Positions 5,395 to 32,000 of a DNA stretch of 32,000 nucleotides are shown here, piece after piece (positions within the stretch are counted from its first letter, which is position 1; every line of letters starts with the position of its first letter). The notes under the pieces were generated by a model. The model saw only the letters and a list, made by a program, of their open reading frames with translations, made no database searches and had not been told where the DNA came from. The DNA is from Candidatus Poseidoniaceae archaeon. Lineage in GTDB: Archaea; Thermoplasmatota; Poseidoniia; Poseidoniales; Poseidoniaceae. The stretch lies in contig CALSTM010000001.1 in NCBI GenBank assembly GCA_943789275.1, forward strand, positions 300,001 through 332,000, in the 5' to 3' direction. Made by a program: the position numbers and the translations under genes.

Positions 5395-5568
5395 GTCTGT
5401 TTGGAGCCCCTGTTAATCCGAGTTTTCAACATCTGTAAACCACCCTCAATGTAGTGCAGCAAGGCATTCATCTGTTGTCCGTTCAGCGGAGTCATTAAAA
5501 GAGGCTCTAAAGTGGCGAAGACGCTTCAGCCTTGCTGCTGTCGCGCAAACACCTTTGAGGGAAAAAAT

Positions 5569-11500: not shown

Positions 11501-14500
11501 ACTACATTGTCGTCGAGCAAGAAGATGTTGCAATGAGCAGTGCTTATGCAATTGCGACTTGGGTCAATGGAAGCATTCGTGTTGTTGATGGCGGTCTGTT
11601 CGTTGGAGATTACACCTACGAAGATTGGGCTTCTCAGGAAGAGAACTTCAAGTTGGAACAGAGTCAACCTGCTGCAGGACTTGACATCAGTTTCGTTGCC
11701 AACGAACTCGCTTTTTCAGCAACCGTTGAAACGAGTGGAAACTTCAGTGTGCGTTTGCCGAGTGGAAATACCTTCCACATGACAGCACAAAGTTTGGTTT
11801 CACAGATGTCAGCCGGTCAACTGATCGAACTCACTGGCGACGCAGAAAAGAATCTCGGCCTCATGTACCTCGAACCGACTGTATCGACAACGGGTCTTGT
11901 CTTCCTTTACGATAACTCAACTTTGTGGGATTCTTTAGCGCCAGGATATGCAGCACAGGAAGTCATTGCTACCGATTCGACAGGTCTTGAATGGAGAACA
12001 ACCATCGACGATCAAGGTGGATTCATTTTCGACCTCCAAGCAGGAGACTGGGACTTTACTGTCGATGACGCTCTTCTCAACTCAACCACTGTAACCGATT
12101 ACGCTATTCTCACAGACACAGGCGCAGTGCCTACTCTGATTGAATTGTTCGTCAACCCGGAGCATCTTTCCATTGAGCTCAACATCTTCATGGATTCGGG
12201 CGCAGATGGTATCTTTGCAAATGGGACGGGCGTCTCACCCGCATTCTCATTGGTTCCACTGAACAACCATGGTCAACAATACAACTTCACTGCAGACGAT
12301 TATACCTCCGCAGGTAACATCACCGTTGTTCTTGAACCTGGTCTTTACAGCATTGATTTCAATGCAACCGAAGCCACGGATGAAAATGCAACCGACTATT
12401 ACTTGATTGGTGAGTCGTTCTTTGAAACACTGGTTGTTGGAATTGAAGCATACGAAGACTCCGTCTCGTATGCGCTACGCAACGAATTCCTTGTGACAGG
12501 TGTTCTCACGAACTCCTCAGGCGATGGAGTCGAAAAGCAGTTCCTGCTGCGTAATGCAGCAGATGATTTGTGGCACAACATTGCCTCTGATGTGAACGGT
12601 AGTTTTGCCTCTTATGTCCCTGCGGGTGACTGGGTTGCAATTGTTGCACCGTTCTCTGCCTCGAACGACAGTATGGAGACCTACCGTGAAGCCTTCACTG
12701 TAAGTGACGATGCTTCAATGCGAACGGGTCTCAACTTCTCTTCCATCGAAGTGGTTACCGTGAACTTCCAAGTTCAGGAATTGTACACAGACTCGAACAT
12801 GAGTGATGTTCGTATTACGCTTGTCAGTCACGATGGATTTGGAAACGTTACGCTATCGAAATCTGATGTGAACGGTAATGTAAGCGAAACCATCATGCCT
12901 GGTACTTGGAGTATGTTCCTGAACCAAACAGAACCTCAACGCCAGTGGAGCCTCGACACTTTTGATGCCCCATTCTCAACCGAAGATGCTGTTGATGGTG
13001 TTCTCAATCTTGGTATTGTTTCACCAGTTCTCAATGTAGAAATTGGCGGAAAGGTCTTCTGGGACCTTGATGATAACGATCTACCCGGTGGCACTGAAGG
13101 CGTTTCAAACACTACGGTTACAATCCTTGGCCTCAACAACACCGAAGTCGATACCAATGTGTCCACCGATGAATTTGGTGTTTGGTCGTTGTTTGTTCCT
13201 ATTCAAGATGAATACCAAGTGACCGTCTCGAAGGAAGGTTTCAGCACAGAAGTTTACAATGTGTCCAACACCAGCGCTTACCCTGTTTATTCGTCACCTG
13301 AATCGTACGATATCGAGATGACTGCAGGAAACGTTACTGTTTCTGGTAACGTCACTGATATCAACGATGCTGAACGCTTGAACGGGTCCGTTGTGAAGTT
13401 GTTCCCAAGCTCGGGCATGGCTGGTGAACCGATTGTGGTTTCCTCTCAATACGCAAACGAACAATTGACATGGTCGTCGGATATTTCCCCAGGTGAATGG
13501 ATTGTTGTCGTTACCGAAGCAAACGCTGGCGAAAACGGCGGTGGAGTTGCGATCGGTCTTCTCGATGCAAGCATCTCAGATGGTGCTACACTTGATTTGG
13601 AAATGTCGCTTGGAGGTTGGCTTGACCTTACAACAACATGGACCGATATCCAACTTGATGAATACCATGCAGGTTCAGCCAGTAATGGTTCAATCTACAT
13701 GAACGAAACTGCAGTTGTAACGATTGCCATTGGTGAGGAACTCGAATGGGACTTGCCAGTTGGTGCTGATGGGACAATTAGCGTACTCATGCCTGCCTCA
13801 GAAGTCGAAATGGACTCATCGTTTATTACCATCCAGCACGATTTGGAACTGGAAATGGAATACATTGGTGGTGCAGTAACAACCATTGCTGAAGGACGCT
13901 CTCCAGTATCCCTATCCTACACTCGAAGCATCAATTCTGATACATCGATCGCTATGGTTGAAGGCAGCGCTGTGAACGCAACTGTTGACGGTGAATTGGC
14001 TTTCACCGCTGTTGAAGAAGGCGAAGGATACCAACATATTGAATTCGATCTCGAACTTAATTATGAAGGAACAGAAACCGTCCAAGTCTTCGATGTTCTC
14101 GGCCAAATTGTCGTTTCACCGGATGAAGCGGATTGGAAGATCGAGTTCAAGAACGGTTCAACCTATGAGGACGCATACCAAGTTTCCCTTGGAATCGGTA
14201 ACAGCAGCGAAGATACATCGGTTCAGTCTTCTGTAACCGTTGGCATTCGAATCACTGTGGCCAATCAGTCCACTGCTTGGCACCTTGAAGAGCCTCACAC
14301 ACTGAAGGTACGTATGCTTACTGACAACACGCCTTCGAGTGAAATCGCAGTTACGGTTCAAGTGCCACAAATCTATGACTTTGAAACTTCTGATGAAGAC
14401 GAGTCAATAGGAATTGGTGCAGGTGGTAACAGTATGTTTGGATTTGTTCTCGAAAACACCGGTAATGGTGATGATTCCTATACCGTTGAACTCTCGGATA

Positions 14501-19500: not shown

Positions 19501-21004
19501 TTGGATTTTCCAAGAATTGCAAACCGGGCAGTATGATTTCCGTATTTGGGCGTCTGACAGTGACTTCTGCAAGACGAAATCCAGTTGGGTTGATTGCGTA
19601 CATGAAACACGTAGCATCAACATCAACACCGACAACGCAATTCCATTCGTACAGCTTAGTGAACCGTTGAACTCTGATATTATCCGAGCGAGTGAAACGC
19701 AATTGATTCAAGGTGTCGCACTTGACAACGATGGATTGGTTACTCGCGTCGAGATATCAATCTTTGATCTTGCCAGCGGTGTGACGATTAACAACGGTCC
19801 AAACCCGGTTACGAACTTTGCACCAAACGGTGCTTGGTACACCACCTGGGACACTTCCGACCTCATTCACGACCAACAGTATGAACTGGTCATCAAGGCA
19901 TGGGACGGTAAGGACTTCTCGAACGAGGAGCGTATACGAATTACAATCGACAATCCAACCGATGCCGACAATCTGGTACCAGAGTTCAACTCGACAGGAT
20001 GGGCCAGTACAATCACCTTGTTCTGCGATTCAAACCCAACCAAACTCGACCGCTGTAACGGTGGAATCAGTATTGACCTCATGGAACACTTCTCCGATGC
20101 AGACGGTGCCGATGATGGTAAGACGAACGGATTGAGTTTCGATATTTTCGATGACCCTACCAACTTAGACGATGACTTCTACGGCGATTACCTCACCCTT
20201 TCAGACACGGGTGTTGTTCGCTATGATCCAGCGTTTGTGACTGGACTCTCGAACGAAGTATCCGAATGGTCCTTAGTCGGTCTCATGTTTGTAGCTCGTG
20301 ATGCTTATGATTCAGTTGCCTATTCCTACAAAGTCAATGTGGTCGTTGTCGAAGTGTCCTTCAGTGTTGTTCGAGACAACACTGGACTTTTGGGCCCAGA
20401 TTCACCAGCATACTTCAGTGGCCAAGGCTTGCCCAACAGTCTGGTTGAAGCGCGATTTGACAGCCTCAAGGGTGTTCGAATTAACCAAACACGGGTCAAT
20501 GCAGACGCAACATGGTCGATGGAAATTTCCAGCAGTCAACTTTCAGGAATGGAAGGTACGAGTAATATTATCTTTGAAATGGATGATCAAGTGTACACCG
20601 TTCCTGGTGAGAACAGTGACGCAGTATTCAAACTCAGCGTCAGTGATGGCTCTGAATCGAGTTCGAATCTCATGATGATTGTTGCTGCAGCGATTGGAGT
20701 CATCGTGTTGCTTGGTGCGGGAATGTTCTTCTTCCAAGTGGAGTATGATGACATGGATGAACTCACTGACATTGCTCAAGCGGAACAAGAGGTTGCATCA
20801 GCAGATCCTTACGCTTGGGCCAAGGCTCGTCAAGAACCAGTCAGTATCCCATCCACTGCTGTTGCTGAAACACCGGTTGCTGCTCAGCCAGTCGCGGCTG
20901 CTGTTCAACATGCAGCTCCACAATCCTCTCAACATCCCGGGTGGCTATGGGATTCTGAATCCAACAGTTGGGTTCCAGATCCAAACTTCACTCCAGAACA
21001 GTGA
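16553..21004 (+). CDS. Large secreted surface protein: right-handed beta-helix (PbH1/NosD-like) region, Cys-flanked DNDGD motif, Ig-like domains, C-terminal TM and a Pro/Ala-rich cytoplasmic tail
   Basis: The ORF is open from GTG 16490, but ATG 16553 lies downstream of the repeat/promoter-like region. The signal peptide is SISLVALLLLSTLTGLIAIPTASA-VNE. Beta-helix repeats include NTISGAAEGSGFGIRSSTVTANSNIIG...NNTIQDTAKEAVLIGE and NNQISNNTG...DNTVTNNGGDGMRI. CADGYDNDGDTKVDSDDADC lies at 18755-18814. Big-like units include SPADGSSHTTGKVTFAGTASDP. The TM is LMMIVAAAIGVIVLLGAGMFFF. Confidence 0.85.
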   Translation: MSTEAQYYIRDKNSNGTEASILKNTTSHKSISLVALLLLSTLTGLIAIPTASAVNETKSGIITGTETWTGTMNLNGDVVVAEGAQLIVNAGTVINIPYGYYIDVEGAICIGDSACGASSGSSGNQARFVWSTPTDYTAQGRCYSNNTNNPNYNADTACGSGMIIRSTIDQAITSIKFAHFENAYGHPFETNQVSGKQYGALVFDGSTTNAQGLSFQNINTSNIMAIDLAAPTISDSTFTLGVDGNGFDAAAVRAYGAGAGILATMEVSNSVFTGNTEAECGNDGRSLVYIESSYVDFSNLDIKDNSYGFFMKESSGSITDSTINVKCSGIDTNSHKVTGTINHTLTISDNTITTADGSGITAYDGAIVVAERNTISGAAEGSGFGIRSSTVTANSNIIGPIGGWNGLWIYGTSDVVAENNTIQDTAKEAVLIGEYHYLDQGWNVPTPTAARLYLANNQISNNTGTCNSQMYGGDFPCPAIHVFMSSATLYDNTVTNNGGDGMRIKASIVNAQRNTIEVSGFAANVSLFDDNYGNKYGSIAYFSENTYTNATQVYNITESRVTVQSEFIPDAGGNELYPVQLRWLGPECPYVLDECLQVPPTAIMPPAFMPLALEVVENSTVFSYADLQNFDSSKIHVQNQNSAWGSQVREGELVRYQVKAQNSNVVDATVIIRDATGLPLYSLTTDAFGFTPEVSLPSDFLLDRNWNHNVGETNVQIPGELDAQGNPVFIDENSCADGYDNDGDTKVDSDDADCTGGRELPFYTVEAYKFGKGQKDFNFVLSGGIDDVINLVNMKPSVTVTQNDGFSFATTASLSGSSWDGISGPYALDQIAYENQFGLIKRVEVQPPGSTDWYSAIDTSGANGMISKSVHPFKTWSFEWDLSAHPEGEGDVTFRVRSYDGLDYSPVEVRKYKLNLVAPTMLVNSPADGSSHTTGKVTFAGTASDPYTGTWGSDIQSIWFDINGPNGYTANFEVSGSTAWAYDWIFQELQTGQYDFRIWASDSDFCKTKSSWVDCVHETRSININTDNAIPFVQLSEPLNSDIIRASETQLIQGVALDNDGLVTRVEISIFDLASGVTINNGPNPVTNFAPNGAWYTTWDTSDLIHDQQYELVIKAWDGKDFSNEERIRITIDNPTDADNLVPEFNSTGWASTITLFCDSNPTKLDRCNGGISIDLMEHFSDADGADDGKTNGLSFDIFDDPTNLDDDFYGDYLTLSDTGVVRYDPAFVTGLSNEVSEWSLVGLMFVARDAYDSVAYSYKVNVVVVEVSFSVVRDNTGLLGPDSPAYFSGQGLPNSLVEARFDSLKGVRINQTRVNADATWSMEISSSQLSGMEGTSNIIFEMDDQVYTVPGENSDAVFKLSVSDGSESSSNLMMIVAAAIGVIVLLGAGMFFFQVEYDDMDELTDIAQAEQEVASADPYAWAKARQEPVSIPSTAVAETPVAAQPVAAAVQHAAPQSSQHPGWLWDSESNSWVPDPNFTPEQ

Positions 21005-21063
21005 TGCACCTTCTGCTCACATGGGCGGAAGTGTTGAAGAGTAGAAAAGTGCGAGGTGAGAAT

Positions 21064-23589
21064 ATGTCTGTTCAACCAAAGCCTGGGGTGCAAGAGCGAA
21101 TACTTCTGCATCTTCTTGATTATTCAGATTTCAAGAACAGCGTAGAAGTCCCCTTTGCACTCTCGCAGATGGGTATTGCGAACGCTGTAGCGATTGCCCG
21201 CTCCAATGTGCCTCGAGCGATTGCTGGACTCAAAGATCAGGGCTTGCTGATTGAACGGCAAGCACACGTCACAGGTGTTTCTCGTAAGCGCAAGGCGTAT
21301 TTTCTCACCGACCCTGGCATGAACGTTTCAGAAGATACGTGGGAGCGTCTGCGAAACTTCCAATTGCGCAGTATCATGGACGATGGGATGATTATCAATT
21401 CGACACTGGGAGAAATCAATGACCATCTCGAATTTTCTATGCGACCTGTCGACATTATTCGATACATGGACGATAACTGTGTTCTCGATACCCGTTCACT
21501 TTCTGCAGATTTAGTCGAGCGGGATTTGTCGAAACATGTGGAAAAACAACTGGTGACATCGCTTGGTGACTTACCACGGCTACGGCATTTCTACGGCCGT
21601 GAAAAAGAACTCGATAACATGGCAAATTTGATTGATGCTCGTGCAACAACACTTCTGATACCCGGTATTGCGGGCATTGGAAAAACAACGATTGCTTCAA
21701 AATTAATCGAGCGTTTCATGCACCGACGTAATCTGTTGTATCATCGTTGCCAAGATTGGGAAGGTTCCCGTTCGTTCTTTGAATCGATTGCTGATTGGTT
21801 GGCCAACATCGGTGATTCAACATTCGCTGACTACTTGGCAGCAACCCCTGTCCCACAACCCGCTGATGCAGCACGGCTTCTGGTAGATTCCCTCGAAGGT
21901 ACACCAAGTTTGATTGTCATCGATGACTTTCACAAAGTCGCCGATACCACGCTGCATCAGACCTTTCAAGCAATGTCGCTCGCATTGCTGGGCAGCGAAG
22001 AGGAAATCGGGCTTGTGATTTTCTCTCGTTCATTCAAACCTGTGGTTCCTACAAAAGACGCTGAAGGTCGAATTGCGAGTCTCGTTCTTCCTCTTGATGG
22101 TCTGGATTCGGATGCTGGGCGTCAACTCTTGAGCAGTTTTGAGAACTTGGGTGATGAACAATGGCTTCACATTCACGGATTATCAAGAGGTCACCCTCTG
22201 GTTCTTGAGTTGATCAACCGCGGTGCTTCTGCTGGTGCCTTCCATGAAACCCTTGAGAATTATGTTACCGTTGAAATCTTTTCGAAATTGAGCGGGGAAC
22301 AGAAGCGTGTGTTGTCTGCTCTTGCCATATACCGTGAGCCTGTCAATTTGTCTGCCCTTGCTGAGCAAGGACTCGATACAGATGAACTTGATTCTCTTGT
22401 TGAACAAGGTCTTGCTCGGCAAGGCGATGTGGATTTCTACGATGTCCACGATTTGATTCGAGAATTTTTAATTCGAAGCCTCGAAGAAAGTACAAAGCAA
22501 GAGTTTCACGCCAAGTGTTGCACTTGGTACGAGAAACAAACTTCTGCACCTGCTGTTTTGATTGAACATATATTCCATCTTATCCGTTCTGGAAAAGATG
22601 ATGCGGCGGCTGTACTCATTGCCGAGCAGGGAAGAGCACTGATTGCACAAGGGCACATGGAGTTACTCGGGTTGATGGAAGGTTTGACTTTTGATTCACT
22701 GGATGTAACAATTCATATGCGTGTTCGACAATTACACGGCGAATTGCTCGTTCTTCTTGGAAGGTTTTCGGAAGCCGAAGCAGTCTTTGTCTCAATCGCT
22801 AAACTGGATCCAAATTCGAAAGCCATTCGGTTGAGAGCGGAAGTACATTCAGCGCTTGCTGATCTTGCCCTGAAACAAGGTGATGCTGACAAGGCATTGG
22901 GTATGCACCGTGAAGCTTTAGAGAAATTCATTGAATGCGGTGATGCCAAAGGCGCTGCTCGTTCATACAATAACATGGGTTATTTGCTCCGGCGTAAAAA
23001 CGATTTTACCAAGGCCCTGGAAGCATATGGGGAAGTTGAAAAAATCCTCGATGAATCCGACGGTACAGAATTGGTTGGGACTCAGTTGACTCTTGCTCGT
23101 GCTTTCTTAGAACTTGATGAAATTGACCGTGCCCGAGACCATGCCATCCAAGCGTTCGAAGTGTCCGATGACGGTACCGATGTACTTCTTCACGCACGTG
23201 CACAGGCTGTTCTTGGCCGGTACTATGCCAAGGTTGGCGATGCTGACGTGGCATCTCACCACTATACCACTGCACTTGAGACGATGAGTGTCGCAGGTGA
23301 TTTACTTTCTCTGGTCGAGATAACTATTCTTCTCGGGGAAGTCTTGCAAGATGCTGGAAGAGCAGAGGACGCAATGGAACATTACCGTGAGGCTCTTGTC
23401 ATAGCCGAAGCCAACGATTTGCGAATGCAGATTGGAGAGTTGCTTTCTCGACTTGGCGGTGTGGCACCAGACAAGCGCCGTCGAATGGAATACCTCCAAA
23501 GAGCGCTTGCAGTATTCAGGGAACTGGGTGCAAAATCAAGAATGCGGGATGTTCAGGCACAGGTTCATGCAGCCGTTATGGGCCGCTGA
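21064..23589 (+). CDS. STAND NTPase (NB-ARC/AP-ATPase-like) with an N-terminal winged HTH and C-terminal TPR repeats; probable signal-sensing transcription regulator
   Basis: The wHTH is FALSQMGIANAVAIARSNVPRAIAGLKDQGLLIERQ...KRKAYFLTDPG. The P-loop is LLIPGIAGIGKTTIA (about 21661-21690). Walker B is SLIVIDDFHKV. GLVIFSRS is RNBS-B-like and SRGHPLVLELI is GLPL-like. TPR-like helical pairs include SYNNMGYLLRRKNDFTKALEAYGEV and AEDAMEHYREALVIAE. The 20968 start is TTG. I prefer ATG 21064 with AGGTGA 6-11 nt upstream. ATG 21004, which overlaps the previous stop as TGATG, is an alternative. Confidence 0.85.
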   Translation: MSVQPKPGVQERILLHLLDYSDFKNSVEVPFALSQMGIANAVAIARSNVPRAIAGLKDQGLLIERQAHVTGVSRKRKAYFLTDPGMNVSEDTWERLRNFQLRSIMDDGMIINSTLGEINDHLEFSMRPVDIIRYMDDNCVLDTRSLSADLVERDLSKHVEKQLVTSLGDLPRLRHFYGREKELDNMANLIDARATTLLIPGIAGIGKTTIASKLIERFMHRRNLLYHRCQDWEGSRSFFESIADWLANIGDSTFADYLAATPVPQPADAARLLVDSLEGTPSLIVIDDFHKVADTTLHQTFQAMSLALLGSEEEIGLVIFSRSFKPVVPTKDAEGRIASLVLPLDGLDSDAGRQLLSSFENLGDEQWLHIHGLSRGHPLVLELINRGASAGAFHETLENYVTVEIFSKLSGEQKRVLSALAIYREPVNLSALAEQGLDTDELDSLVEQGLARQGDVDFYDVHDLIREFLIRSLEESTKQEFHAKCCTWYEKQTSAPAVLIEHIFHLIRSGKDDAAAVLIAEQGRALIAQGHMELLGLMEGLTFDSLDVTIHMRVRQLHGELLVLLGRFSEAEAVFVSIAKLDPNSKAIRLRAEVHSALADLALKQGDADKALGMHREALEKFIECGDAKGAARSYNNMGYLLRRKNDFTKALEAYGEVEKILDESDGTELVGTQLTLARAFLELDEIDRARDHAIQAFEVSDDGTDVLLHARAQAVLGRYYAKVGDADVASHHYTTALETMSVAGDLLSLVEITILLGEVLQDAGRAEDAMEHYREALVIAEANDLRMQIGELLSRLGGVAPDKRRRMEYLQRALAVFRELGAKSRMRDVQAQVHAAVMGR

Positions 23590-23590
23590 A

Positions 23591-24067
23591 TTAATTGTAA
23601 GATTGCGGCCTGTCGTATTGCAATGAAGTTACACCGTCTGAGTAAACAATCCATACCGAAGTGACACCGGCAAGGACGACCGTCCCTTCGTGGGAACCTG
23701 CACCAGTTCCAGATAACGACACACTGGTATCAAGCGTCCCACCTTCGTGAATTAAATTAATCGAAGTATCTGTGAGTTCAAGCGTAATTCTCGATTCGTC
23801 TGCTTCGGTTAATCTCCAAGTCACTTTCTCCGCATATTCAACTGACCCCATTCGACTCGCCTCATCGGCTCGTTCAACAGCTGCAGCCAAGTCATCAAGG
23901 TTGGATTGAATTGCATTCTCGTTCCAACGTTCACGGGTTGCAGTTTCGATTTGATACGCCCAAATACTGAATGTAGTAAGCAACAAGACCCCTAAAAGAA
24001 AGGTAAAAATATAGCCGAGTTCAGTCGCAGCAGCGTGTTCATCTCTACGTAATTGTTTACTGTTCAA
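23591..24067 (-). CDS. Small class-III-signal (type IV pilin-like) protein, third gene of the pilin-like operon
   Basis: The N-terminus is MNSKQLRRDEHA-AATELGYIFTFLLGVLLLTTFSIWAY. Its leader motif is shared with the two upstream genes. The only start that keeps the hydrophobic helix is TTG at 24067, which overlaps the upstream TGA as TTGA. The first internal Met lies after the helix. Confidence 0.65.
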   Translation of the reverse strand: MNSKQLRRDEHAAATELGYIFTFLLGVLLLTTFSIWAYQIETATRERWNENAIQSNLDDLAAAVERADEASRMGSVEYAEKVTWRLTEADESRITLELTDTSINLIHEGGTLDTSVSLSGTGAGSHEGTVVLAGVTSVWIVYSDGVTSLQYDRPQSYN

Positions 24068-26274
24068 GATACCGCCTCCGTCATGTGTGCACTAAGATCA
24101 GCAATTTGAAGTGTAAATTGAATTGCTTCACCGTTGGTATGCCAAATTGCTTCGGATGTGCCGTATGATGGGTCAGGTACCCATCCAACATAGTCGTTGA
24201 GCAAATCAATACGGCCGGGGTAGACCGTCCAATCTTCACTCGCTTCAAGTCCATCCGCCGAGGATTGTGCAATGGCAACTCCGTAGGGGCTTGCCCATCC
24301 CCTTCGTACTTCATAAGCCTCAGCAGATGCTAAGGAGGAACGGTCTACCAACTCGATGTCGAGGTTCATATTGCCTGAACCACTGACGCTGTCTGCAGTA
24401 GGATGGAGGGAAGGTACAGTAGCTGCAAAGCGAGGTCCAGGTCCTCCTCGGTCTGAAGGTGAAACGACGATGTGAGGTTCAAACTCAGGGTGATTCGTGA
24501 CGACGGCTCCACCCGCATAGGCGACTTCCATGCCAGAAATTGAGGATTGGAATTCGTAACTGAGTCGTGAGAGATGGAATCCCCAAACTGTGCCCAAGGT
24601 GGCGTGGTTTGAAGCACCGTTCTCTCCAATTAAACTGATTTGCATACTTGCGGGATGGTTTCCTGCCCTCCACGCATTTTTCAGGTCAACTTGACTTCTT
24701 CCACTCATCGATTGCCAAGGGAGGTCTGCGCTGATCCAACCACTTGCTTGAATGTTCATCGGTAAACAACGTTGAGCGCCATCGTGCATGGCTTGAAGTA
24801 ATCCATTTTGACCTCGTATCGAATAAATCCGTAATGCATCGCCGTCTGTTACTCGGATTTGAGTTACGCCTTGACCAAGTTCAACGGTTTCATCATATGA
24901 ATCATCGAGGAACGTTCCGTTGGCCTCACTACTACCTGTCATGTTCCATTCTGTGTAGTGTCCTGTGTGTGTGATGTGGAGTCGATGGAGTCCAGCTTGG
25001 TCGTTCTGGATGGTGTGCAACTGGCCGGAGGATGCACCGGTATCATCTGCAGGTTCCATTTGGAGGCCGGAGCCGGAAGCATTCTTTCTCCATGTGACAA
25101 ATACATCCCCGTTCGCATCGAGCATTGGTGCCCCGTTGGTGTCGGCCGGTGGCCAAGGAAACACCGAACTTTGATTCGCTGGAACTGAAAGTCCACCTCC
25201 TCGCCAAGTAACCGTTACACTGTCCGTTCCGGGGTTCGAAAAGACGAGTTCGCCGTCAAAGGTTGGCGTCATGAATGAATGCCCAAGATGCTGTCCATTG
25301 ATGCTCGGCAATGCCATTTGCCCGACACTTGCGTTACTGTTCGTTTGTAGAATCAATCTCGATGGTGAACTTGTAGATACGTGGACGACTTCGGGAGATG
25401 TGAGGTTGAACTGGTGTGTAAAATCAACCCCAACTCGGTTTTGATTGGATGGTAGCGCATAGTAGGTGCTTGACGTATCGTTCCGAATTGTGATTTGGTT
25501 TGCCGACTCGCTAAGGACTTGAATCTTGTTTTCTCCAGCAGGTAATGGAATCGACCATGAGCTGCCGGTGGAGTCGACAGGACTTGGATCATTGGGTTGA
25601 ATCACGGCAGTACCGCCGTTGCCAACGGAGAACAAAAGATGCAATTGGTGGGATGAATGTATGATGGTTTCTCCAAGTCCACTCGCATCCAAAAGATGCA
25701 TGCCATCTACCATCAATTGGATTTCGGACAGCTTTTCACTGCCGTTCAACACTTCGACTTCGATTGGTCCGAGAGGTAAAGCCAGTCCTGGCGAGGCAGT
25801 AAGGAGCACTTCATCGACCCATTCAGGGATGGTGAAAATGTACGGGTTTGATGGCCCAAGACGCAAGTCATCGATGCATACCGCTGTATTCATTGATTCA
25901 GGATGGCGGATACGCAGTTCATCATCGTAGTCGAGGGCTCCTTGGACCCGGAATGACGTGTCATCGGCCCATGTAGCAGAGTACCACATGCTGCTTTGCA
26001 TCATGTTCCAGTTGAGGGTTCCGTCAACTGGAATGAGGTTGATTTCTGTAGAGTCTCCAGGCATGCCGGTTTCGCTTAGCGCTGAAGTTTGGTGCGCCAT
26101 CAGTGTCATTTGTGCCGACATATCGTGCCGTTCAATCGATCCTTCAAGCTCTTCAATCACTGGAATCAACGAGACCATCATCATGGCAATAATCGATAAT
26201 ACGCCGCCGAAAAGAAGCACGGTTGCAACTGCAGCCGAGACCGCCTCTTCGTCCCGCTGGAGCATTGAGTTCAT
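24064..26274 (-). CDS. Large (736 aa) class-III-signal (type IV pilin-like) surface protein
   Basis: The N-terminus is MNSMLQRDEEA-VSAAVATVLLFGGVLSIIAMMMVSL. EAVSAA fits the FlaFind-style pattern [KRDE][GA][ALIFQMVED][ILMVTAS]x3. The start overlaps the upstream stop as ATGA (26271-26274). The remainder is Ser/Thr/Asn-rich with several N-X-S/T sequons and no family I recognise. Confidence 0.7.
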   Translation of the reverse strand: MNSMLQRDEEAVSAAVATVLLFGGVLSIIAMMMVSLIPVIEELEGSIERHDMSAQMTLMAHQTSALSETGMPGDSTEINLIPVDGTLNWNMMQSSMWYSATWADDTSFRVQGALDYDDELRIRHPESMNTAVCIDDLRLGPSNPYIFTIPEWVDEVLLTASPGLALPLGPIEVEVLNGSEKLSEIQLMVDGMHLLDASGLGETIIHSSHQLHLLFSVGNGGTAVIQPNDPSPVDSTGSSWSIPLPAGENKIQVLSESANQITIRNDTSSTYYALPSNQNRVGVDFTHQFNLTSPEVVHVSTSSPSRLILQTNSNASVGQMALPSINGQHLGHSFMTPTFDGELVFSNPGTDSVTVTWRGGGLSVPANQSSVFPWPPADTNGAPMLDANGDVFVTWRKNASGSGLQMEPADDTGASSGQLHTIQNDQAGLHRLHITHTGHYTEWNMTGSSEANGTFLDDSYDETVELGQGVTQIRVTDGDALRIYSIRGQNGLLQAMHDGAQRCLPMNIQASGWISADLPWQSMSGRSQVDLKNAWRAGNHPASMQISLIGENGASNHATLGTVWGFHLSRLSYEFQSSISGMEVAYAGGAVVTNHPEFEPHIVVSPSDRGGPGPRFAATVPSLHPTADSVSGSGNMNLDIELVDRSSLASAEAYEVRRGWASPYGVAIAQSSADGLEASEDWTVYPGRIDLLNDYVGWVPDPSYGTSEAIWHTNGEAIQFTLQIADLSAHMTEAVS

Positions 26275-27356
26275 CTCGAGACCTCCACACGTTTTACATC
26301 GACTTCCAGAATGAGTTGGCTCTGTTGAGTTTCGACGGTGAATCCATCCGCCCCACTGGCCCGAAGATATGGCGCATATCCAGTAAATGTGTCAAGTGTC
26401 CCTGAGGCTCGGTTCAGCGTGTGGTCTTCCAGCATCTTGTCATGGTATTGTGGGGTAATGAGGTCATTGAGTGCGTTTTCTACCGTGAACTTGAGATGGT
26501 AAGCATTGCCAGTAAAGAGCGTCTTTGGTCCAAGCGATACCATATTCATTCCAATATTTTCTCCCGAGCCAATGGAGCCGTTGATGGTGACGTCAGTGAG
26601 AACGATGGATAATCGTAGTTCTCCGGTCACAAGTGTGTCAAGTTCGATGTTTGGGAATTGCGAAACTTTCCAAGGCTCGTTCGGGAACTGTTCGGCACGT
26701 GCGTCGTTTACCAAAGCAATTTGATGCTCTCCCAAGCCGAGGGAGGTTGAGATTTGAATTCCAGATACAATGTAGGAGGCACTTCTGTGTAAGGCACGCT
26801 GGTCAGCATCGTAGACCGTAATTGTCATCCAATGGTCTTGCGACGATTGATGCTGTACAGGCACTTCATCGAAGGTTGCACCGAATACGTGCGTTTCAAT
26901 GCCCAACGGGCTTTCGATTGTGACGCTACGAGCGGTCTCATTGGCCGCTGTAATGCCTATTGCTGAGTTGTTAATGTTGCGTACCGTGATTCGATCATCA
27001 GGTGTTAAATCAGCAGCAATCGTCCAGGTTTCAACCTTGATGACTGGCTGAATCATGGTTGATTTGAGTGCGAGCGTGTGACGGATGCCAGTGCCTTCAG
27101 GTGCGCTTCCAGCGACATCAATTCTGTCTTCAAATCGGTCGGCTATCCCGTTTGCACTGTTCCAATTGGTGTTGTCTTCAAAATCGGAAATGTACGGGTT
27201 GAGGAAAATCCACACACCGCCCATGATTGTAACGACCATGGCTAACATCATGACAACACCTAGAACTTCGCTGACTGCCCTTTGGTCTCGGCGTAGAGAC
27301 GGGCGAAGTACAGTGGGGTGGTGTGCGTTCACAGGTAGCACAACCTTTGGTATCAT
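26271..27356 (-). CDS. Class-III-signal (archaeal type IV pilin N-terminal domain-like) protein, 361 aa
   Basis: ...SLRRDQRA-VSEVLGVVMMLAMVVTIMGGVWIF resembles the archaeal Pilin_N/DUF1628-type consensus as I recall it (RAVSPVIGVILMVAITV...). It follows a 24-aa basic leader. Confidence 0.7.
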   Translation of the reverse strand: MIPKVVLPVNAHHPTVLRPSLRRDQRAVSEVLGVVMMLAMVVTIMGGVWIFLNPYISDFEDNTNWNSANGIADRFEDRIDVAGSAPEGTGIRHTLALKSTMIQPVIKVETWTIAADLTPDDRITVRNINNSAIGITAANETARSVTIESPLGIETHVFGATFDEVPVQHQSSQDHWMTITVYDADQRALHRSASYIVSGIQISTSLGLGEHQIALVNDARAEQFPNEPWKVSQFPNIELDTLVTGELRLSIVLTDVTINGSIGSGENIGMNMVSLGPKTLFTGNAYHLKFTVENALNDLITPQYHDKMLEDHTLNRASGTLDTFTGYAPYLRASGADGFTVETQQSQLILEVDVKRVEVSR

Positions 27357-27373: not shown

Positions 27374-27393
27374 CACCCCCCCGAAGGGGGGTG
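27374..27393 (-). other. Intercistronic RNA stem-loop: 8-bp G/C stem closed by a C(UUCG)G tetraloop
   Basis: The minus strand reads CACCCCCC-TTCG-GGGGGGTG with perfect complementarity. It lies 10 nt after the MBL stop (27404) and 17 nt before the pilin-like ATG (27356). No U-tract follows it. Confidence 0.6.
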
Positions 27394-27403
27394 ATTTAGC
27401 GGT

Positions 27404-28222
27404 TTACCGAACCGTCGAATGAACGTGTGATGCATCAGATTCCTCGGCAGTTCGACCGATGTAGTGTGAATGCTCAGGTCCATCTTGGAGTGAGATGGAA
27501 ATATCTCCACTAAAGATCTCATCGATGTGGTACAGAACAGTGGATTCGGCGAGATGCGGCTGGTTGTTTTTTTCCGATAAATGCGTCAGAGAAATACTAC
27601 GAGTGGCCGGTGTGCAAACTTGTGCGAGAAATTCTCCAGTTTGGTCGTTTGAAAGGTGCCCCCCACGGCCGCTGATACGGTCTTTCAAAGAGAATGGATA
27701 CGGCCCATTCATCAAGCGGTTATGGTCGTAATTCGCTTCAATAGCAATATGTTCACACCCACGTACATGGGTCACAAGTTCATCGGTCCATGAGCCAAGA
27801 TCGGTAATAACTGCAGCACGTTGACCGTTATGGCTTGCGACAAAGGCCACATTGTCTGCTCCCGAATGAGGTACTGGGACAGGCAAAACCGATAAATCAT
27901 CGCTGACTTTAACCAGATCTAATGAATCAAAGTAGTGGGTGAGTTCGGGTTGAAGGCCCAATTCTTCAGCAGTACGGTGGTTGGCTTGGACTTTCATTTT
28001 CCAGCGCTTTTGGGCGACCAATGCGCCACCCCCATGATCGCCATGGTGATGGCTGATGAAGATGAAATCAATTTCAGTTGGGTGTATGTTGAGTCGAGCA
28101 AGTCGTTTTTCCAACTGTGCACCGCTAAAGCCTTGGTCAATGAGCACTTTGGCATGTTCGGTCTCGAGCAAAGTCGCATTCCCGCGACTGCCGGTTCCGA
28201 GGTGCGTGAGTACCATCGTCAT
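27404..28222 (-). CDS. MBL-fold metallo-hydrolase (YycJ/WalJ-like)
   Basis: It carries the HxHxDH motif FISHHHGDHGGG (about 28029-28058), an N-terminus TMVLTHLGTGSRGNATLLE typical of this subfamily, and GGHLSNDQ near the C-terminus. The maximal ORF start at 28282 is TTG. ATG at 28222 (or 28216) matches family N-termini better. Confidence 0.85.
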   Translation of the reverse strand: MTMVLTHLGTGSRGNATLLETEHAKVLIDQGFSGAQLEKRLARLNIHPTEIDFIFISHHHGDHGGGALVAQKRWKMKVQANHRTAEELGLQPELTHYFDSLDLVKVSDDLSVLPVPVPHSGADNVAFVASHNGQRAAVITDLGSWTDELVTHVRGCEHIAIEANYDHNRLMNGPYPFSLKDRISGRGGHLSNDQTGEFLAQVCTPATRSISLTHLSEKNNQPHLAESTVLYHIDEIFSGDISISLQDGPEHSHYIGRTAEESDASHVHSTVR

Positions 28223-28409
28223 CTCAATCGGAACCGACTGGTCGCGAGCGGCCTTTGAAGACACCGCTTGAGTTGGTTGCAATGCTGCTCTTTTTCTCGT
28301 TCAACTGACTTCTCCACTTGAATTTGAGAAAGAAAAAAGCGGCGATTCAACGGTTCATTATTCCGCGTCTGTCCGAACATCGCTCCATCATCCTCATAAG
28401 TGTCTTGAG

Positions 28410-28438: not shown

Positions 28439-28455
28439 TGTAGGCTGGTCTCCAA

Positions 28456-31400
28456 ATGCGACGAAGTTTAACCACTCTTCTCACCACGCTTGCTGTTGTT
28501 GCAAGTTTGCTTTTCATGTCCCAATTTCCGGCTGTATCCTCGGTTTCGAACCTTCATCCGGACACAACCGACGGTTCCAAGCCTCCTTCAACGGATACCG
28601 ACGGCGATAAAATCCCAGACGTCCACGAAAACCTGTTTGAAGAATGGATGAATTGGAGTGCCGTTGACGGCCGAGCAGTTTCGATTGAAGGGATGGACAG
28701 CAACGATGCATCCGATGCATTGTTGGATCTCGACAAAGACGGGTTGAACGCCACAGAAGAATATTGTTGGCCTTATCCGGCGAATTGTACAGAACCTGGT
28801 TTCCCCCGTGGACTCACCGGTAAGGTAGACGGTGAAGGAGAGCGCTCATACCTCGACCCTCGAATCTCAGACACAGATGGCGACGGAATGCCTGATGGCT
28901 ACGAAGCTTACATGTGTGAACGTGTAGGTGGTTACAATGTCTTCACGTTCAAATACGAATGCAATACCTTTGACCCTCTCAATGCATCGGATTTGTACGA
29001 CGACCCTGATGAAGACGGGTTTGACGTCAATCGAGATGGAGTTTTATCCATCACTGAACGGTTTTCTTCACCGGAAGAATACATCCAAGGAGCACCTACA
29101 AACCACACAAACGAACTGGACGGACTTTGGTGCTCAGCCACATTACCTGAAGGGTCTGTCTTCGAAAATTGGCCGTTCATTCCAACTGGAGCCAATGCCA
29201 CATTCCAAAACTTACTTTCTGCATGTACTGAAAACGCAACCATGGTCATCGACGAAGACATTTGGCTCGGTACCGACCCGTTGCTTGCTGACTCGGACCG
29301 TTACCATTGGGACGGGTATTCTATTCGTCGCCTGTTCCCATCTTTCGGGGATGGAATCCCTGACGGTTGGGAAGTTCATTTTGGTCTTGAGCCTCTGAAT
29401 CGTACCAATGCTTTACTCGACCCAGATAACGATGGATGGGACGCCAACCGTGATGGAGGTGTGTCGCCAGACGTCAGTCGAACACGAACGGCTCTGGCTC
29501 TTGGTGAATCGCTCTCGACGCTGGAGGAATATTTCGTCCACAACGATAACGGAAACTCTGTCCTACCGGGTATGAAAACAGCCTTACTTGGTACGCAGGA
29601 TAACAGCGTCGAATACATGCCTCTCAGTTTTGATGCGCCTGCCGATGAAATGAGTTTGATTCACTATGATTTACGTGATTTAGATACTGATGATTTACAC
29701 GCTTATGCAACCACGAAATATGGCCTTACGGTCTTCGACTATGAGCAAATGGTAAGTTACGATCACTGGATGCCTGAGGGCATCGAATTGCATTCTTCAC
29801 TGCTCCTTTCGCAAGAAGACTCTCTCTTCGCACTCGCAGTTGCAACCAGCGCAGGTCTTGCCGTAGCACCGCTTCAGGCAGATGGAAATCTTGGACCTTT
29901 GAGTTCCTGGTCCTGGTCGCTTTCCGACGAACTGTTCGCGCTCACCATGCTCACCATCGACGGCCAGAACACACTTTTACTTGGATTGGGTAATGCAGGT
30001 GACGGTTCAGTGTTCGAAATTTCTTCGTCCGCTGAGATTATCGATCAATATCCAATTTCTGAGGATTTAGAGACCGCTCTGCGTCAATCCAATGCATCCG
30101 TGACTGAATTGGCCCATGGGCCCGCAGGTGGCGGAGCAAACATGCTTTTCGTAGGTACAGACCGAGGTCTGCTCACTGCAGAAACCACAACTGCTCGTGA
30201 TGAGTTCGAGCCGAGTTGGAGATTTTACTACACTCCCGAAACCACTCCCTTCCCCACTTCAATTGATGAACTCCGTTCACTCTCGTTGGGAATGGTCGCC
30301 AATCCTGCTGAAGTCCGGACGATGATTCTTGATGGGCCGAATGCAGCCAATGCTCAAGTTTTATGGTTTGGTACGCCATCTGGAGTCCACATGTTGAATT
30401 TGGTAGAGAACTCCATTTCTCACAGTGGCCTGTTGGAGCATCCCGGTGTTGAAGGCCGATATGTTCGCGAATACAACAACATTCACGCTTTGCATGTGAC
30501 CGGTGATGAAGTCTTGGTCGGTTCAATAAAAGGCATGTGGGCTATTTCTGGAGATTATTCAGCTGTTTATGGCTTCCAAGAACAAGAAACCATTTATGGT
30601 GAAATTGTGACGATACAGTCGCTGTTGATTGATGGTAACACAACAATTTTGACTGGTTCTTCTCCAGGTAAATACGCAAACATTGAGCTCATCAATCCAG
30701 GTGCGAACGATTCTGACAACGACGGAATGCCCGATGGATGGGAAGTCGCTAACGGCCTTGATCCAACCGATCCCTGGGATTCTCTGTTCGATGCAGACAG
30801 CGACGGCCTTGATCTTGACCAAGCCGAAGACGGATTCTTGGAACGACTTTGGACCAACCTTGATGAATACCGGTTTGTATCTCAATCTTTGAACGGCTAC
30901 AACTCGACCAACCCCAAAGTTGGCGACACTGACGGTGATGGATTAGGCGATGGAAGCGAATACTTCGGGTTCTTCTATGAAACATCGAACCTTTGGTGCC
31001 ACTACACTGTCCAGATGCAGTACGTCTGCGATGATGCAGCAGGACAGGCTGCCAATGCGACCTACCTTGGATTGTCAAGCACCGACCGTGGGACTGACCC
31101 GACGAATTTCGACAGTGACGGTGACGGAATGCCTGATGGCTGGGAGATTGAGCACAGGAGATGGATTGGTTCCTCGTTCACCGGCGGCAACAATTGGACA
31201 CTGGACCCCAACCGTGCTGATGATGCAAACTGGGACGCAGACAGCGATGGACTGCCTAACCTTTGCGAGTACCAATGGTCTGTCGTTCGCAGTGCAGCAG
31301 TCGACGGCTTGTTGTATGAATCTCATGGAGAATCAGTGAACTCCAGTTTGGAATGGTTTGAAGCAGACCCGAACAACATCGATTCAGATGGAGACTCTCT

Positions 31401-32000
31401 ACCTGATGGCTGGGAGTCCGGGGGCTCATGCACATGGGATCCCTCTCGACAAGGCGTAAACCCGCTCAATGCTTCAGATTTGTACCAAAACCCTGATGGC
31501 GATGGATACGATATCAACCACAATGGTATACTGGAAGAAAATGAAGCATTCGTAAACTATCTCGAATTCCACGTCCGTTCGGACTTGTTCAACGGTAACC
31601 AAACCTTCACCGGCGAGTCATTGCCTAACGGTTTTTCCACTGACTTGTTCACCAACATCAGTCTCAACGGCGCCCCTGAAGCGTCATTCGGTGACCGTGC
31701 ATCAGGCTCTGTAACCGCCCTGCAATCGGCCACAAGTGTCGGCTCTTCCAATCCTTTGAGTGCCGACTCGGACGCTGATGGAATGCCAGATGGATGGGAA
31801 GTTTGGTTTGCTCGTTGGAATATTCTTGATGATGCTTGGACCCTGAATCCTTTGGATTCTTCAGACCGTTGGCAAGACGCAGATGATGATGGAATGGCGA
31901 ACTGGGAGGAATACAATTCCATCGCTCCAGAATATTCAGAAACCGACCAAAATCGTTCCTCACCTCAATGGTTTGTAACCACGGTTGGCTCGGCTTTTGC
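28456..32000 (+). CDS. Large secreted Ca-binding protein: thrombospondin type-3-like repeats flanking a beta-propeller-like core (5' partial, runs off the window)
   Basis: This ORF is not in the supplied track. I translated it by hand. There is an in-frame TAG at 28441-28443, an ATG at 28456, and no stop through 32000 (1,181 codons). The signal peptide is MRRSLTTLLTTLAVVASLLFMSQFPAVSS. There are at least 15 D-x-D-x-D-G-type repeats, for example DTDGDGMPDGYE, DSDNDGMPDGWE, DSDGDGMPDGWE and DSDADGMPDGWE. The central region (about 29570-30700) has Reg_prop-like blades: MLFVGTDRGLLTAE, VLWFGTPSGVHMLN and EVLVGSIKGMWAISG. Confidence 0.85.
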   Translation, partial: MRRSLTTLLTTLAVVASLLFMSQFPAVSSVSNLHPDTTDGSKPPSTDTDGDKIPDVHENLFEEWMNWSAVDGRAVSIEGMDSNDASDALLDLDKDGLNATEEYCWPYPANCTEPGFPRGLTGKVDGEGERSYLDPRISDTDGDGMPDGYEAYMCERVGGYNVFTFKYECNTFDPLNASDLYDDPDEDGFDVNRDGVLSITERFSSPEEYIQGAPTNHTNELDGLWCSATLPEGSVFENWPFIPTGANATFQNLLSACTENATMVIDEDIWLGTDPLLADSDRYHWDGYSIRRLFPSFGDGIPDGWEVHFGLEPLNRTNALLDPDNDGWDANRDGGVSPDVSRTRTALALGESLSTLEEYFVHNDNGNSVLPGMKTALLGTQDNSVEYMPLSFDAPADEMSLIHYDLRDLDTDDLHAYATTKYGLTVFDYEQMVSYDHWMPEGIELHSSLLLSQEDSLFALAVATSAGLAVAPLQADGNLGPLSSWSWSLSDELFALTMLTIDGQNTLLLGLGNAGDGSVFEISSSAEIIDQYPISEDLETALRQSNASVTELAHGPAGGGANMLFVGTDRGLLTAETTTARDEFEPSWRFYYTPETTPFPTSIDELRSLSLGMVANPAEVRTMILDGPNAANAQVLWFGTPSGVHMLNLVENSISHSGLLEHPGVEGRYVREYNNIHALHVTGDEVLVGSIKGMWAISGDYSAVYGFQEQETIYGEIVTIQSLLIDGNTTILTGSSPGKYANIELINPGANDSDNDGMPDGWEVANGLDPTDPWDSLFDADSDGLDLDQAEDGFLERLWTNLDEYRFVSQSLNGYNSTNPKVGDTDGDGLGDGSEYFGFFYETSNLWCHYTVQMQYVCDDAAGQAANATYLGLSSTDRGTDPTNFDSDGDGMPDGWEIEHRRWIGSSFTGGNNWTLDPNRADDANWDADSDGLPNLCEYQWSVVRSAAVDGLLYESHGESVNSSLEWFEADPNNIDSDGDSLPDGWESGGSCTWDPSRQGVNPLNASDLYQNPDGDGYDINHNGILEENEAFVNYLEFHVRSDLFNGNQTFTGESLPNGFSTDLFTNISLNGAPEASFGDRASGSVTALQSATSVGSSNPLSADSDADGMPDGWEVWFARWNILDDAWTLNPLDSSDRWQDADDDGMANWEEYNSIAPEYSETDQNRSSPQWFVTTVGSAF

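Follow-up and report, generated by a model that had tools for sequence, protein, structure and literature searches.

The question raised by this locus is what three overlapping genes, annotated as "hypothetical protein" almost everywhere, encode together. They occupy positions 23,591 to 27,356 of the minus strand of a 32,000-nucleotide (nt) stretch, referred to below as the window (contig CALSTM010000001.1 of assembly GCA_943789275.1, positions 300,001 to 332,000). The organism is a Candidatus Poseidoniaceae archaeon, that is, a member of Marine Group IIa (MGIIa); Marine Group II (MGII) archaea are uncultured and are among the most abundant planktonic archaea. An earlier note, made from the sequence alone, had described the genes, here called P1, P2, and P3, as an orphan cluster of unusually large type IV pilin-like proteins. 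We hold with moderate confidence that the trio encodes archaeal type IV pilin-like proteins made in a fixed stoichiometry, namely a minor or "modular" pilin complex that displays the ectodomain of P2 and relies on machinery encoded in trans. The genes and the sites that couple them are as follows:

26271..27356, minus strand: P1 gene, 361 amino acids (aa), ATG start; type IV pilin-like protein with an N-terminus resembling DUF7289 and Pilin_N
24064..26274, minus strand: P2 gene, 736 aa, ATG start; large modular pilin-like protein
23591..24067, minus strand: P3 gene, 158 aa, TTG start; small pilin-like protein
26271..26274, minus strand: ATGA overlap of 4 nt between the P1 stop and the P2 start, read from the sequence
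24064..24067, minus strand: TTGA overlap of 4 nt between the P2 stop and the TTG start of P3, read from the sequence
26282..26286, minus strand: GGAGG, Shine–Dalgarno-like site upstream of the P2 start, read from the sequence
24075..24079, minus strand: GGAGG, Shine–Dalgarno-like site upstream of the P3 start, read from the sequence

The coordinates, the sizes of 361 and 736 aa, the 4-nt overlaps, and the TTG start given in the earlier note all proved correct when the open reading frames (ORFs) were read and compared with the starts of orthologues. The orthologue set comprised 92 related loci, including those of Thalassarchaeaceae (Marine Group IIb, MGIIb). The P1–P2 overlap is -4 nt in 83/83 loci, and the P2–P3 overlap is -4 nt in 76/82. 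The P3 orthologues start at this position with ATG (62), GTG (8), or TTG (6), and the assignment of TTG as the start of P3 is supported because the orthologues have a start codon at the same place. The spacing between GGAGG and the internal start is 8–9 nt for both P2 and P3. Each protein has one hydrophobic segment, located at the N-terminus, and an acidic isoelectric point (4.5–5.0). Among the 181 six-frame ORFs of the window with a length of at least 50 aa, only P1, P2, and P3 have, in their first 50 residues, a [RKQ]Dxx[AG] motif followed by an uncharged hydrophobic run of 16 residues. Since the only three ORFs with this motif are adjacent, the pattern is real and not a product of chance.

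The N-termini are divided as follows:

27276..27356, minus strand: P1 leader, residues 1–27; basic, poorly conserved, ends in ..RRDQRA
27201..27275, minus strand: P1 predicted mature N-terminal hydrophobic helix, residues 28–52 (VSEVLGVVMMLAMVVTIMGGVWIFL); near-invariant columns, invariant Glu at +3
26242..26274, minus strand: P2 leader, residues 1–11 (MNSMLQRDEEA); 11 aa in 82/83 orthologues
26164..26241, minus strand: P2 predicted mature N-terminal hydrophobic helix, residues 12–37 (VSAAVATVLLFGGVLSIIAMMMVSLI); first acidic residue not before +30
24032..24067, minus strand: P3 leader, residues 1–12 (MNSKQLRRDEHA); 12–13 aa in 80/82 orthologues
23960..24031, minus strand: P3 predicted mature N-terminal hydrophobic segment, residues 13–36 (AATELGYIFTFLLGVLLLTTFSIW); invariant Glu at +4

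All three proteins have the layout of a class III signal, in which a short charged leader at the extreme N-terminus ends in Gly or Ala and leads directly into about 20 hydrophobic residues. The shared N-terminal motif described in the earlier note is borne out and can be generalised to L-x-R-D-x-x-[AG], with L(-7), R(-5), D(-4), and [AG](-1) common to the P1, P2, and P3 families. The note had let its interpretation depend on the conservation of this motif in homologues, and the motif is indeed conserved: residue -1 is Ala or Gly in 84/84 P1, 89/92 P2, and 90/90 P3 sequences, 263/266 together. The P1 leader is 27 aa long in 63/83 orthologues (range 19–48), and its information content is low up to -5. 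R(-5) and D(-4) are conserved in the P2 leader, and P3 has D at -4 in 72/74 distinct N-termini. The information content per position is approximately 1–3 bits in the leaders and jumps to approximately 4.3 bits from +1, the values at +1 to +9 being inflated by the selection of the orthologues with regular expressions on the mature N-terminus, which matched all three proteins in 80/92 loci. The motif is intact in MGIIb, where the sequences around the boundary between -1 and +1, marked here with a slash, read ..GHDSG/VSEILGV in P1, ..RDNEEA/VSAAVATV in P2, and ..QDNEA/ASTEIGYV in P3.

The identity of P1 as an archaeal type IV pilin-like protein is convincing. Its best PDB sequence matches are solved archaeal pilins, and the alignment, convincing on visual inspection, spans both the leader and the helix. 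The P1 sequence ..RRDQRA/VSEVLGVVMMLAMVV aligns residue for residue with the haloarchaeal pilins 8gi2 (..DEERAVSPVIGVILMVAITVIL) and 8fj5 (..NDDSAVSPVIGVILMVAITVIL); in the PDB profile alignment, the P1 consensus ..rrdERAVSEVLGVVMLLAMVITI is set against ..SDEERAVSPVIGVILMVAITVIL of 8gi2. Residues 26–80 of P1 match DUF7289 (E=5e-5, 23.3 bits with a cut-off of 27, profile positions 1–55) and Pilin_N (PF07790, E=6e-4). At E <= 0.01, 101 of the 107 P1 family members match Pilin_N (best 1e-4), and 103 match DUF7289. The AlphaFold2 model, with a mean confidence (predicted local distance difference test, pLDDT) of 85.9, consists of a 63-residue helix (residues 22–84) followed by beta-sandwiches, which corresponds to the "lollipop" shape of pilins. 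A Foldseek search of this model against the PDB gave generic Ig-like matches only, none of them at E <= 1e-3, and a tblastn search of P1 against the PLSDB plasmids, aimed at annotated haloarchaeal DUF7289 loci, gave no match.

When comparing public gene calls, differences in the position of the P1 start can be noted. P1 is often called from Met36 (window position 27251) or Met37, giving versions of 325 or 326 aa (homologues P0122-P0126, P0145, P0150, and P0202), and homologue P0146 is called later still, as a protein of 317 aa. All these starts lie inside the hydrophobic helix. Such calls delete the signal peptide, which is probably why the family went unrecognised as pilin-like.

P2 and P3 share with P1 only the N-terminal layout. 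P2 matches DUF7289 over residues 11–89 with a score of 27.3 bits, which exceeds the cut-off of 27 by 0.3 bit, and 10 of 15 diverse P2 members match the same profile (family-member matches to DUF7289 were counted at E <= 0.01-0.1). Weak matches to DUF7266 were found in 15/78 P3 homologues. The assignment of a class III, pilin-type layout to all three proteins in the earlier note is supported, most strongly for P1, on the pilin alignment, the Pilin_N and DUF7289 matches, and the fold; for P2 and P3 the pilin models are marginal or unmatched. An hhalign comparison of the three families gave E=2.9e-4 over 43 columns for the A1–A2 pair, and the other pairs were not significant. The families are thus alike only at the N-terminus, and this is the pattern of different pilins of one set. 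No description of DUF7289, DUF7266, or related DUFs was found in the literature searched. The parts beyond the N-terminal regions are as follows:

26274..27104, minus strand: P1 globular part, residues 85–361; beta-sandwich domains, AlphaFold2 strands at 90–294 and 326–360, pLDDT mostly >85
24574..25977, minus strand: P2 beta-sandwich/jelly-roll array, residues 100–567; confident all-beta prediction, AlphaFold2 pLDDT ~80–93
24067..24573, minus strand: P2 C-terminal domain, residues 568–736; highest conservation within P2, unmatched in Pfam and the PDB

The earlier note had stated that the globular parts match no family, and this held in Pfam, NCBIfam, and PDB profile searches and in Foldseek searches with the AlphaFold2 models: no Pfam or NCBIfam domain was found beyond the N-terminus of any of the three proteins, and no PDB sequence match to these parts was obtained. 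The P2 model matched only generic jelly-roll and carbohydrate-binding module-like folds in the PDB, with a TM-score of ~0.1, and the scores over both models (P1 and P2) were ~0.1-0.2. In the P2 model, helices at residues 9–69, predicted with low confidence, precede the all-beta core. The Cys133 and Cys503 pair of P2 is invariant, which fits an extracellular location. The C-terminal 170 residues, with the motifs GGAVVTNHPE, DRGGPGPRFAAT, VRRGW..PYG, and DYVGWVPDP, contain dozens of invariant residues across 31–100% identity, yet their AlphaFold2 pLDDT is ~30. Folding of this domain may require a partner, for example P1, P3, or one of the neighbouring proteins.

Broken P2 genes were observed at two loci, in which P2 is divided into two ORFs (383+368 aa; L005, 11083-13310) or three (153+56+556 aa; L006, 11083-13313). 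Both are long-read, pilon-polished contigs of 0.58-1.87 Mb, and P2 is intact (742 aa) in the sister contig L004. The splits are probably uncorrected frameshift errors rather than pseudogenes.

The proposed pilin complex takes as its starting point what was observed directly: the leaders, Ala or Gly at -1, the single helix, the P1 fold, the 4-nt overlaps with Shine–Dalgarno-like sites, and the order-wide conservation. A class III signal peptidase of the FlaK/ArlK or PibD type, encoded elsewhere in the genome, would cleave off the leaders on the cytoplasmic side. The three mature proteins could then bundle via their hydrophobic N-terminal helices into a 1:1:1 complex, which may act like a minor-pilin or "modular pilin" unit that primes or caps a type IV filament, with the ATPase and the platform protein acting in trans. 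Alternatively, the complex might stay as a short membrane-anchored stalk. In either case, the complex would expose the large beta-sandwich ectodomain and the conserved C-terminal domain of P2 at the cell surface, where adhesion or the capture of ligands is the most likely role. By analogy with bacterial GspK and PilX, P2 would be placed at the distal end, being the largest subunit and the only one without an acidic residue near the mature N-terminus.

Several points weigh against this proposal. Cleavage, complex formation, and filament association of P1–P3 are inferred. The match of P1 to Pilin_N (21.1 bits) is below the curated cut-off of 25.2, and its match to TIGR02537 (15.1 bits) is below the cut-off of 20; neither model was matched at or above its cut-off by any of the three proteins, and P2 and P3 did not match them at all. 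The P2 match is restricted to DUF7289 and covers only profile positions 2–78 of 238, and confidence in the P2 model is low for its first 95 and last 170 residues. For the P3 protein of the window, no pilin model was matched in the Pfam and NCBIfam scan. Position -2 of P2 is acidic in most orthologues, whereas characterised FlaK/PibD substrates usually carry K or R there. N-glycosylation sequons are not enriched: P1, P2, and P3 contain 3, 8, and 0 with approximately 3, 6, and 1 expected. A link through N-glycosylation to the neighbouring giant STT3 protein was considered and rejected on these counts. Finally, no ATPase, platform, or peptidase gene was found within 10 kb in any of the 92 loci, the flanks of which consist of the same block of surface-protein genes, and the trio with intact Ala or Gly at -1 is retained in Thalassarchaeaceae, although few MGIIb genomes are reported to have archaellum genes or FlaK.

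The last two points depend on the distribution of the trio and on its surroundings. Homologue searches, counted as protein clusters at E <= 0.001, gave 181 clusters for P1, 515 for P2, and 1017 for P3. The taxon-named matches listed are all from marine Poseidoniales or from metagenome-assembled genomes (MAGs) of unclassified marine Euryarchaeota/Thermoplasmatota, near-identical proteins are labelled Candidatus Poseidoniaceae, and a divergent cluster bears the name Ca. Thalassarchaeaceae. When 1.84 billion representatives were searched exhaustively with a P2 profile, only 135 matches emerged, approximately 13 of them full length, so the P2 family is lineage-specific. P2 relatives are encoded in 336 GTDB species genomes. 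Given these cluster counts, the 336 genomes, and the 92 loci, the description of the cluster as "orphan" was wrong with regard to its distribution: the trio is a core cluster found throughout the order Poseidoniales, in rigid synteny, and is probably important to these archaea. One complete Poseidoniales block, with a P2 of 56% identity, is carried by the contig NZEQ01000036.1 (L047), titled "Verrucomicrobiales bacterium isolate ARS100"; most likely, this contig is mis-binned or mislabelled.

The gene order found everywhere examined is giant surface proteins, a metallo-beta-lactamase (MBL)-fold hydrolase, P1, P2, P3, a convergent STAND/TPR gene, a beta-helix protein, an S8 protease, and a giant STT3 protein. 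Neighbours in the window include the following:

27404..28282, minus strand: MBL-fold hydrolase directly upstream of P1 (Lactamase_B_2, E=8e-15)
20968..23589, plus strand: HTH-STAND(AAA_16)-TPR regulator identified with Pfam, convergent with the trio, its end 1 nt from the P3 stop
5512-15141, plus strand: STT3 giant ORF, 3209 aa, with an STT3/AglB oligosaccharyltransferase N-terminal domain at residues 423–693 and CarboxypepD_reg-like repeats
28444-31998, plus strand: ORF beyond the MBL gene with bacterial-type thrombospondin type 3 (TSP3) repeats and a signal-like N-terminus, at least 1185 aa, running off the 3' end of the window

The nine-gene block, which starts with the TSP3 giant, was found by tblastn to be collinear and complete in 55/55 loci with full 10-kb flanks, in both families of Poseidoniales. 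The same order is present in the MGIIb loci L087-L089 and in the most divergent loci L090-L092 (31–33% identity). Such rigid synteny of a block made mostly of giant surface proteins is notable. The MBL gene adjoins P1 in all 55 full-flank loci according to tblastn and lacks a gene call in L090, and the STAND/TPR gene is present and convergent in 91/92 loci. The 3' ends of the STAND/TPR gene and P3 are 1 nt apart in the window (23589-23591) and overlap by 4 nt in the MGIIb locus L087 (12708-12711), so their transcripts must terminate inside each other's genes. In all related loci, those of MGIIb included, an orthologue of the STT3 giant (3146–3204 aa) stands at the corresponding place; the fusion of an oligosaccharyltransferase to a giant extracellular region is unusual. 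The TSP3 ORF is probably one of the "thrombospondin" adhesion genes that Rinke et al. noted in MGII. The other block neighbours in the window are a 1504-aa beta-helix/Big_7 surface protein and an S8 subtilase. The window also encodes a CDP-archaeol synthase, and the tRNA and Rfam scans of the window revealed nothing.

Pfam scans of all large ORFs revealed no PilB/FlaI-type ATPase, PilC/FlaJ-type platform protein, or A24 peptidase in the window, in agreement with the earlier note. The MBL, subtilase, and STAND proteins were considered as the missing peptidase or ATPase and were rejected, since they belong to the wrong families: A24 enzymes are membrane aspartyl proteases, and a STAND protein with HTH and TPR is of the MalT-like regulator type. 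For machinery elsewhere in the genome, three published MAG surveys were used. The archaellum genes flaB/H/I/J are reported in all MGIIa genera or subclades and in few MGIIb, and the archaellum FlaH/I/J set is the only type IV machinery reported for Poseidoniaceae (PMC6461757; PMC6336850; PMC6864105). FlaK is annotated in 83/92 MGIIa MAGs and in 26/158 MGIIb MAGs (PMC6336850, Supplementary Data 10, the Tully pangenome table), and archaellum genes and FlaK are reported in only ~16-29% of MGIIb MAGs (PMC6336850; PMC6864105). These absences are soft evidence, as the MAGs are incomplete (~55-85%) and the annotation is KEGG-based. The earlier note had regarded a genome without a prepilin peptidase or a type IV filament ATPase as decisive against its interpretation; according to the literature, this does not apply to MGIIa, and it may apply to most MGIIb, which keep the trio. 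The presence of the trio in lineages reported without archaella raises the question of which peptidase and ATPase, if any, serve it.

The persistence of the trio in MGIIb is the main argument for the view that the complex is independent of type IV machinery. In this alternative, which we regard as unlikely but which survives best of those considered, the proteins form a pilin-derived envelope complex, inserted by Sec and anchored by their N-termini (cleaved or not), as fixed envelope components alongside the neighbouring giants, with no type IV ATPase and no filament. The trio is found across the order, including Thalassarchaeaceae, while archaellum genes and FlaK are reported mainly in MGIIa. 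It always stands in the collinear block with the giant surface proteins, the S8 protease, and the STT3 giant, with no type IV machinery gene within 10 kb at any locus, and the acidic -2 residue of P2 is atypical of known peptidase substrates. However, the conservation boundary lies exactly between -1 and +1, and residue -1 is nearly always Ala or Gly, including in MGIIb. This resembles a maintained cleavage site, and a plain signal anchor would have no obvious use for it. In addition, the N-terminal pattern of P1 is essentially identical to that of pilins in solved filaments, and the KEGG-based absence of FlaK in incomplete MAGs is weak evidence. A more specific form of this alternative, in which the complex is a core, order-wide part of a rigidly conserved surface/glycosylation block of ~30 kb and is retained, its "cleavage-site" motif intact, even in the many Thalassarchaeaceae that have neither an archaellum nor an annotated class III peptidase nor a type IV ATPase, appears distinctly unlikely to us. 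Were the complex independent of the machinery, either class III-type proteins would have an unknown route of processing and assembly, or the N-terminal module of pilins would serve in a new way outside filaments, as an envelope anchor in the most abundant planktonic archaea of the ocean.

It is highly improbable that P1–P3 are accessory proteins of the archaellum with genes outside the fla operon, either minor archaellins or components of a stator or anchor that resemble ArlF/ArlG. The names "flagellin-like protein" and "FlaG/FlaF family" given by the Joint Genome Institute to the P1 homologues P0135, P0147, P0161, and P0175 point in this direction, as does the fact that the archaellum is the sole type IV-like machine reported in MGIIa. 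Nevertheless, no Pfam or NCBIfam archaellin or FlaF/FlaG model was matched at E <= 1, the only hit being the generic TIGR02537 with its 15.1 of 20 bits. ArlF and ArlG are about 150 aa long, far from the 361 and 736 aa of P1 and P2. The neighbours of the trio are the MBL and STAND genes and not fla genes, the fla operon contigs listed by Tully (PMC6336850) differ from the trio-bearing contigs, and Thalassarchaeaceae, for the most part reported to lack archaellum genes, retain the trio. As for three ordinary, unrelated membrane proteins with generic signal anchors, a coincidental N-terminal likeness, and no joint function, the unrelated sequences of the globular parts and the lack of a significant pilin-model match for P3 would fit, but this can hardly be credited given a motif confined to three adjacent ORFs of 181, a 4-nt coupling and gene order kept at 31–33% protein identity, and L(-7), R(-5), D(-4), and A/G(-1) conserved in all three families.

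Two further elements were found at the start of P1:

27349..27371, minus strand: 23-nt element, AAGGTCAATGGCTAA followed by ATGATACC, spanning the P1 start; AGGT(C/G)A Shine–Dalgarno-like core, conserved in nearly all loci
27374..27393, minus strand: perfect G+C hairpin CACCCCCCTTCGGGGGGGTG in the MBL–P1 intergenic gap; folding energy of the surrounding 49 nt approximately -20 kcal/mol

The 23-nt element is conserved as DNA even at loci such as L053, L055, L066, L076, and L086, where its ATG does not share the reading frame of P1 and a 357-aa variant of the protein begins at a GTG further downstream, which suggests a translation-initiation or regulatory element rather than a coding constraint. 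The hairpin is present in relatives with a P2 identity of at least ~71%, where the stem is almost always unchanged and the loop varies (TTCG, TAAG, TATG, TGTG, or TACG), and it is absent from more distant loci. An upstream three-codon mini-ORF (ATG GCT AAA TGA) coupled to P1 was also considered and was rejected, since its ATG is not conserved and is replaced by ATA, ATT, ACT, or AGG elsewhere.

Turning from these elements to the preferred reading of P1–P3 as a minor or modular pilin complex, several known systems can be compared with it. The closest to P1 are the haloarchaeal PilA/Pilin_N pilins (8gi2, Natrinema PilA2; 8fj5; 9myg), which are similar to it in the pattern D-x-R-A/V-S-E-V-L-G-V-V-M-x-L-A-M-V and in having an N-terminal helix followed by a beta-rich domain. 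They differ in size, the solved haloarchaeal pilins being 145–165 aa long versus 361 aa for P1 and 736 aa for P2, and in position +3, which is Glu in P1 and Pro in the solved pilins; in comparison with the pilins of solved filaments, nothing suggests that P1–P3 are major filament subunits. In the case of DUF7289 (PF23960) and DUF7266 (PF23928), only the helix region matches (in DUF7289, the N-terminal 55–78 positions), and at least 160 remaining profile positions are unmatched.

In function, the closest analogies are bacterial minor-pilin complexes and modular adhesive pilins. In bacteria, minor pilins form tip or priming complexes, such as GspI-GspJ-GspK of the type II secretion system and PilV/W/X with PilY1 of type IV pili, and in such sets the conserved N-terminal Glu is missing from the largest subunit, which probably caps the fibre. 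The trio is analogous to them in being encoded by coupled genes for distinct pilin-like proteins and in the distribution of Glu, which stands at +3 in P1 and +4 in P3, with none before +30 in the largest protein, P2. However, no sequence or fold similarity to these sets was detected, and the signal of the trio is of the archaeal class III type, not the bacterial G/F-x-x-x-E. Modular type IV pilins, for example PilB and PilC of Streptococcus sanguinis, consist of a pilin module fused to an adhesion module, and P2 can be likened to them in that its N-terminal pilin module precedes further globular modules with a possible, purely predicted role in ligand binding. Neither a vWA nor a lectin domain was recognised in P2.

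The Sulfolobus bindosome includes sugar-binding proteins with class III signals besides BasABC. The BasABC proteins are pilin-like, and non-filament surface proteins with class III signals are on record (PMC4858521). The likeness lies in the number of three pilin-like proteins; in contrast to the trio, the Bas locus carries its own ATPase and membrane protein (BasE/F), and BasABC are small, whereas no solute-binding domain was seen in the trio.

Parallels in organisation come from Euryarchaeota, where pilin sets are encoded in trans to, and exchanged between, ATPase/TadC modules, where many stand-alone genes carry class III signals, and where FlaFind-positive, all-beta minor pilins of 250–550 aa (arCOG02911) are known (Makarova, Koonin and Albers 2016, PMC4858521). 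The sizes emphasised in the earlier note are correct, but both they and the pilin-only arrangement are less exceptional than it implied, since minor pilins of 250–550 aa and pilin sets away from an ATPase had already been described (PMC4858521). Judging by their description, the arCOG02911 minor pilins of PilB3/PilB4-type loci are similar to the trio in the FlaFind-type signal, the all-beta Ig-like body, the size, and the occurrence of several pilin-like genes in a row. P2 is beyond the size described for these sets, and the trio never stands beside an ATPase in the 92 loci but in the surface-protein block instead. A pilin-only cluster with large subunits is therefore an already known kind in archaea. 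The novelty lies in the three families, for whose globular parts no described counterpart was found, in a modular subunit of 736 aa, in the invariant coupling of all three genes, in the acidic residue at -2 of P2, and in the fixed position in the surface-protein/STT3 block across the whole order. The attachment of MGII to particles or algae has been inferred only from archaellum, thrombospondin, and flotillin genes (PMC6461757); the trio adds to these an order-wide candidate complex for surface adhesion or anchoring, and it contributes three new protein families to the censuses of archaeal type IV pilins.

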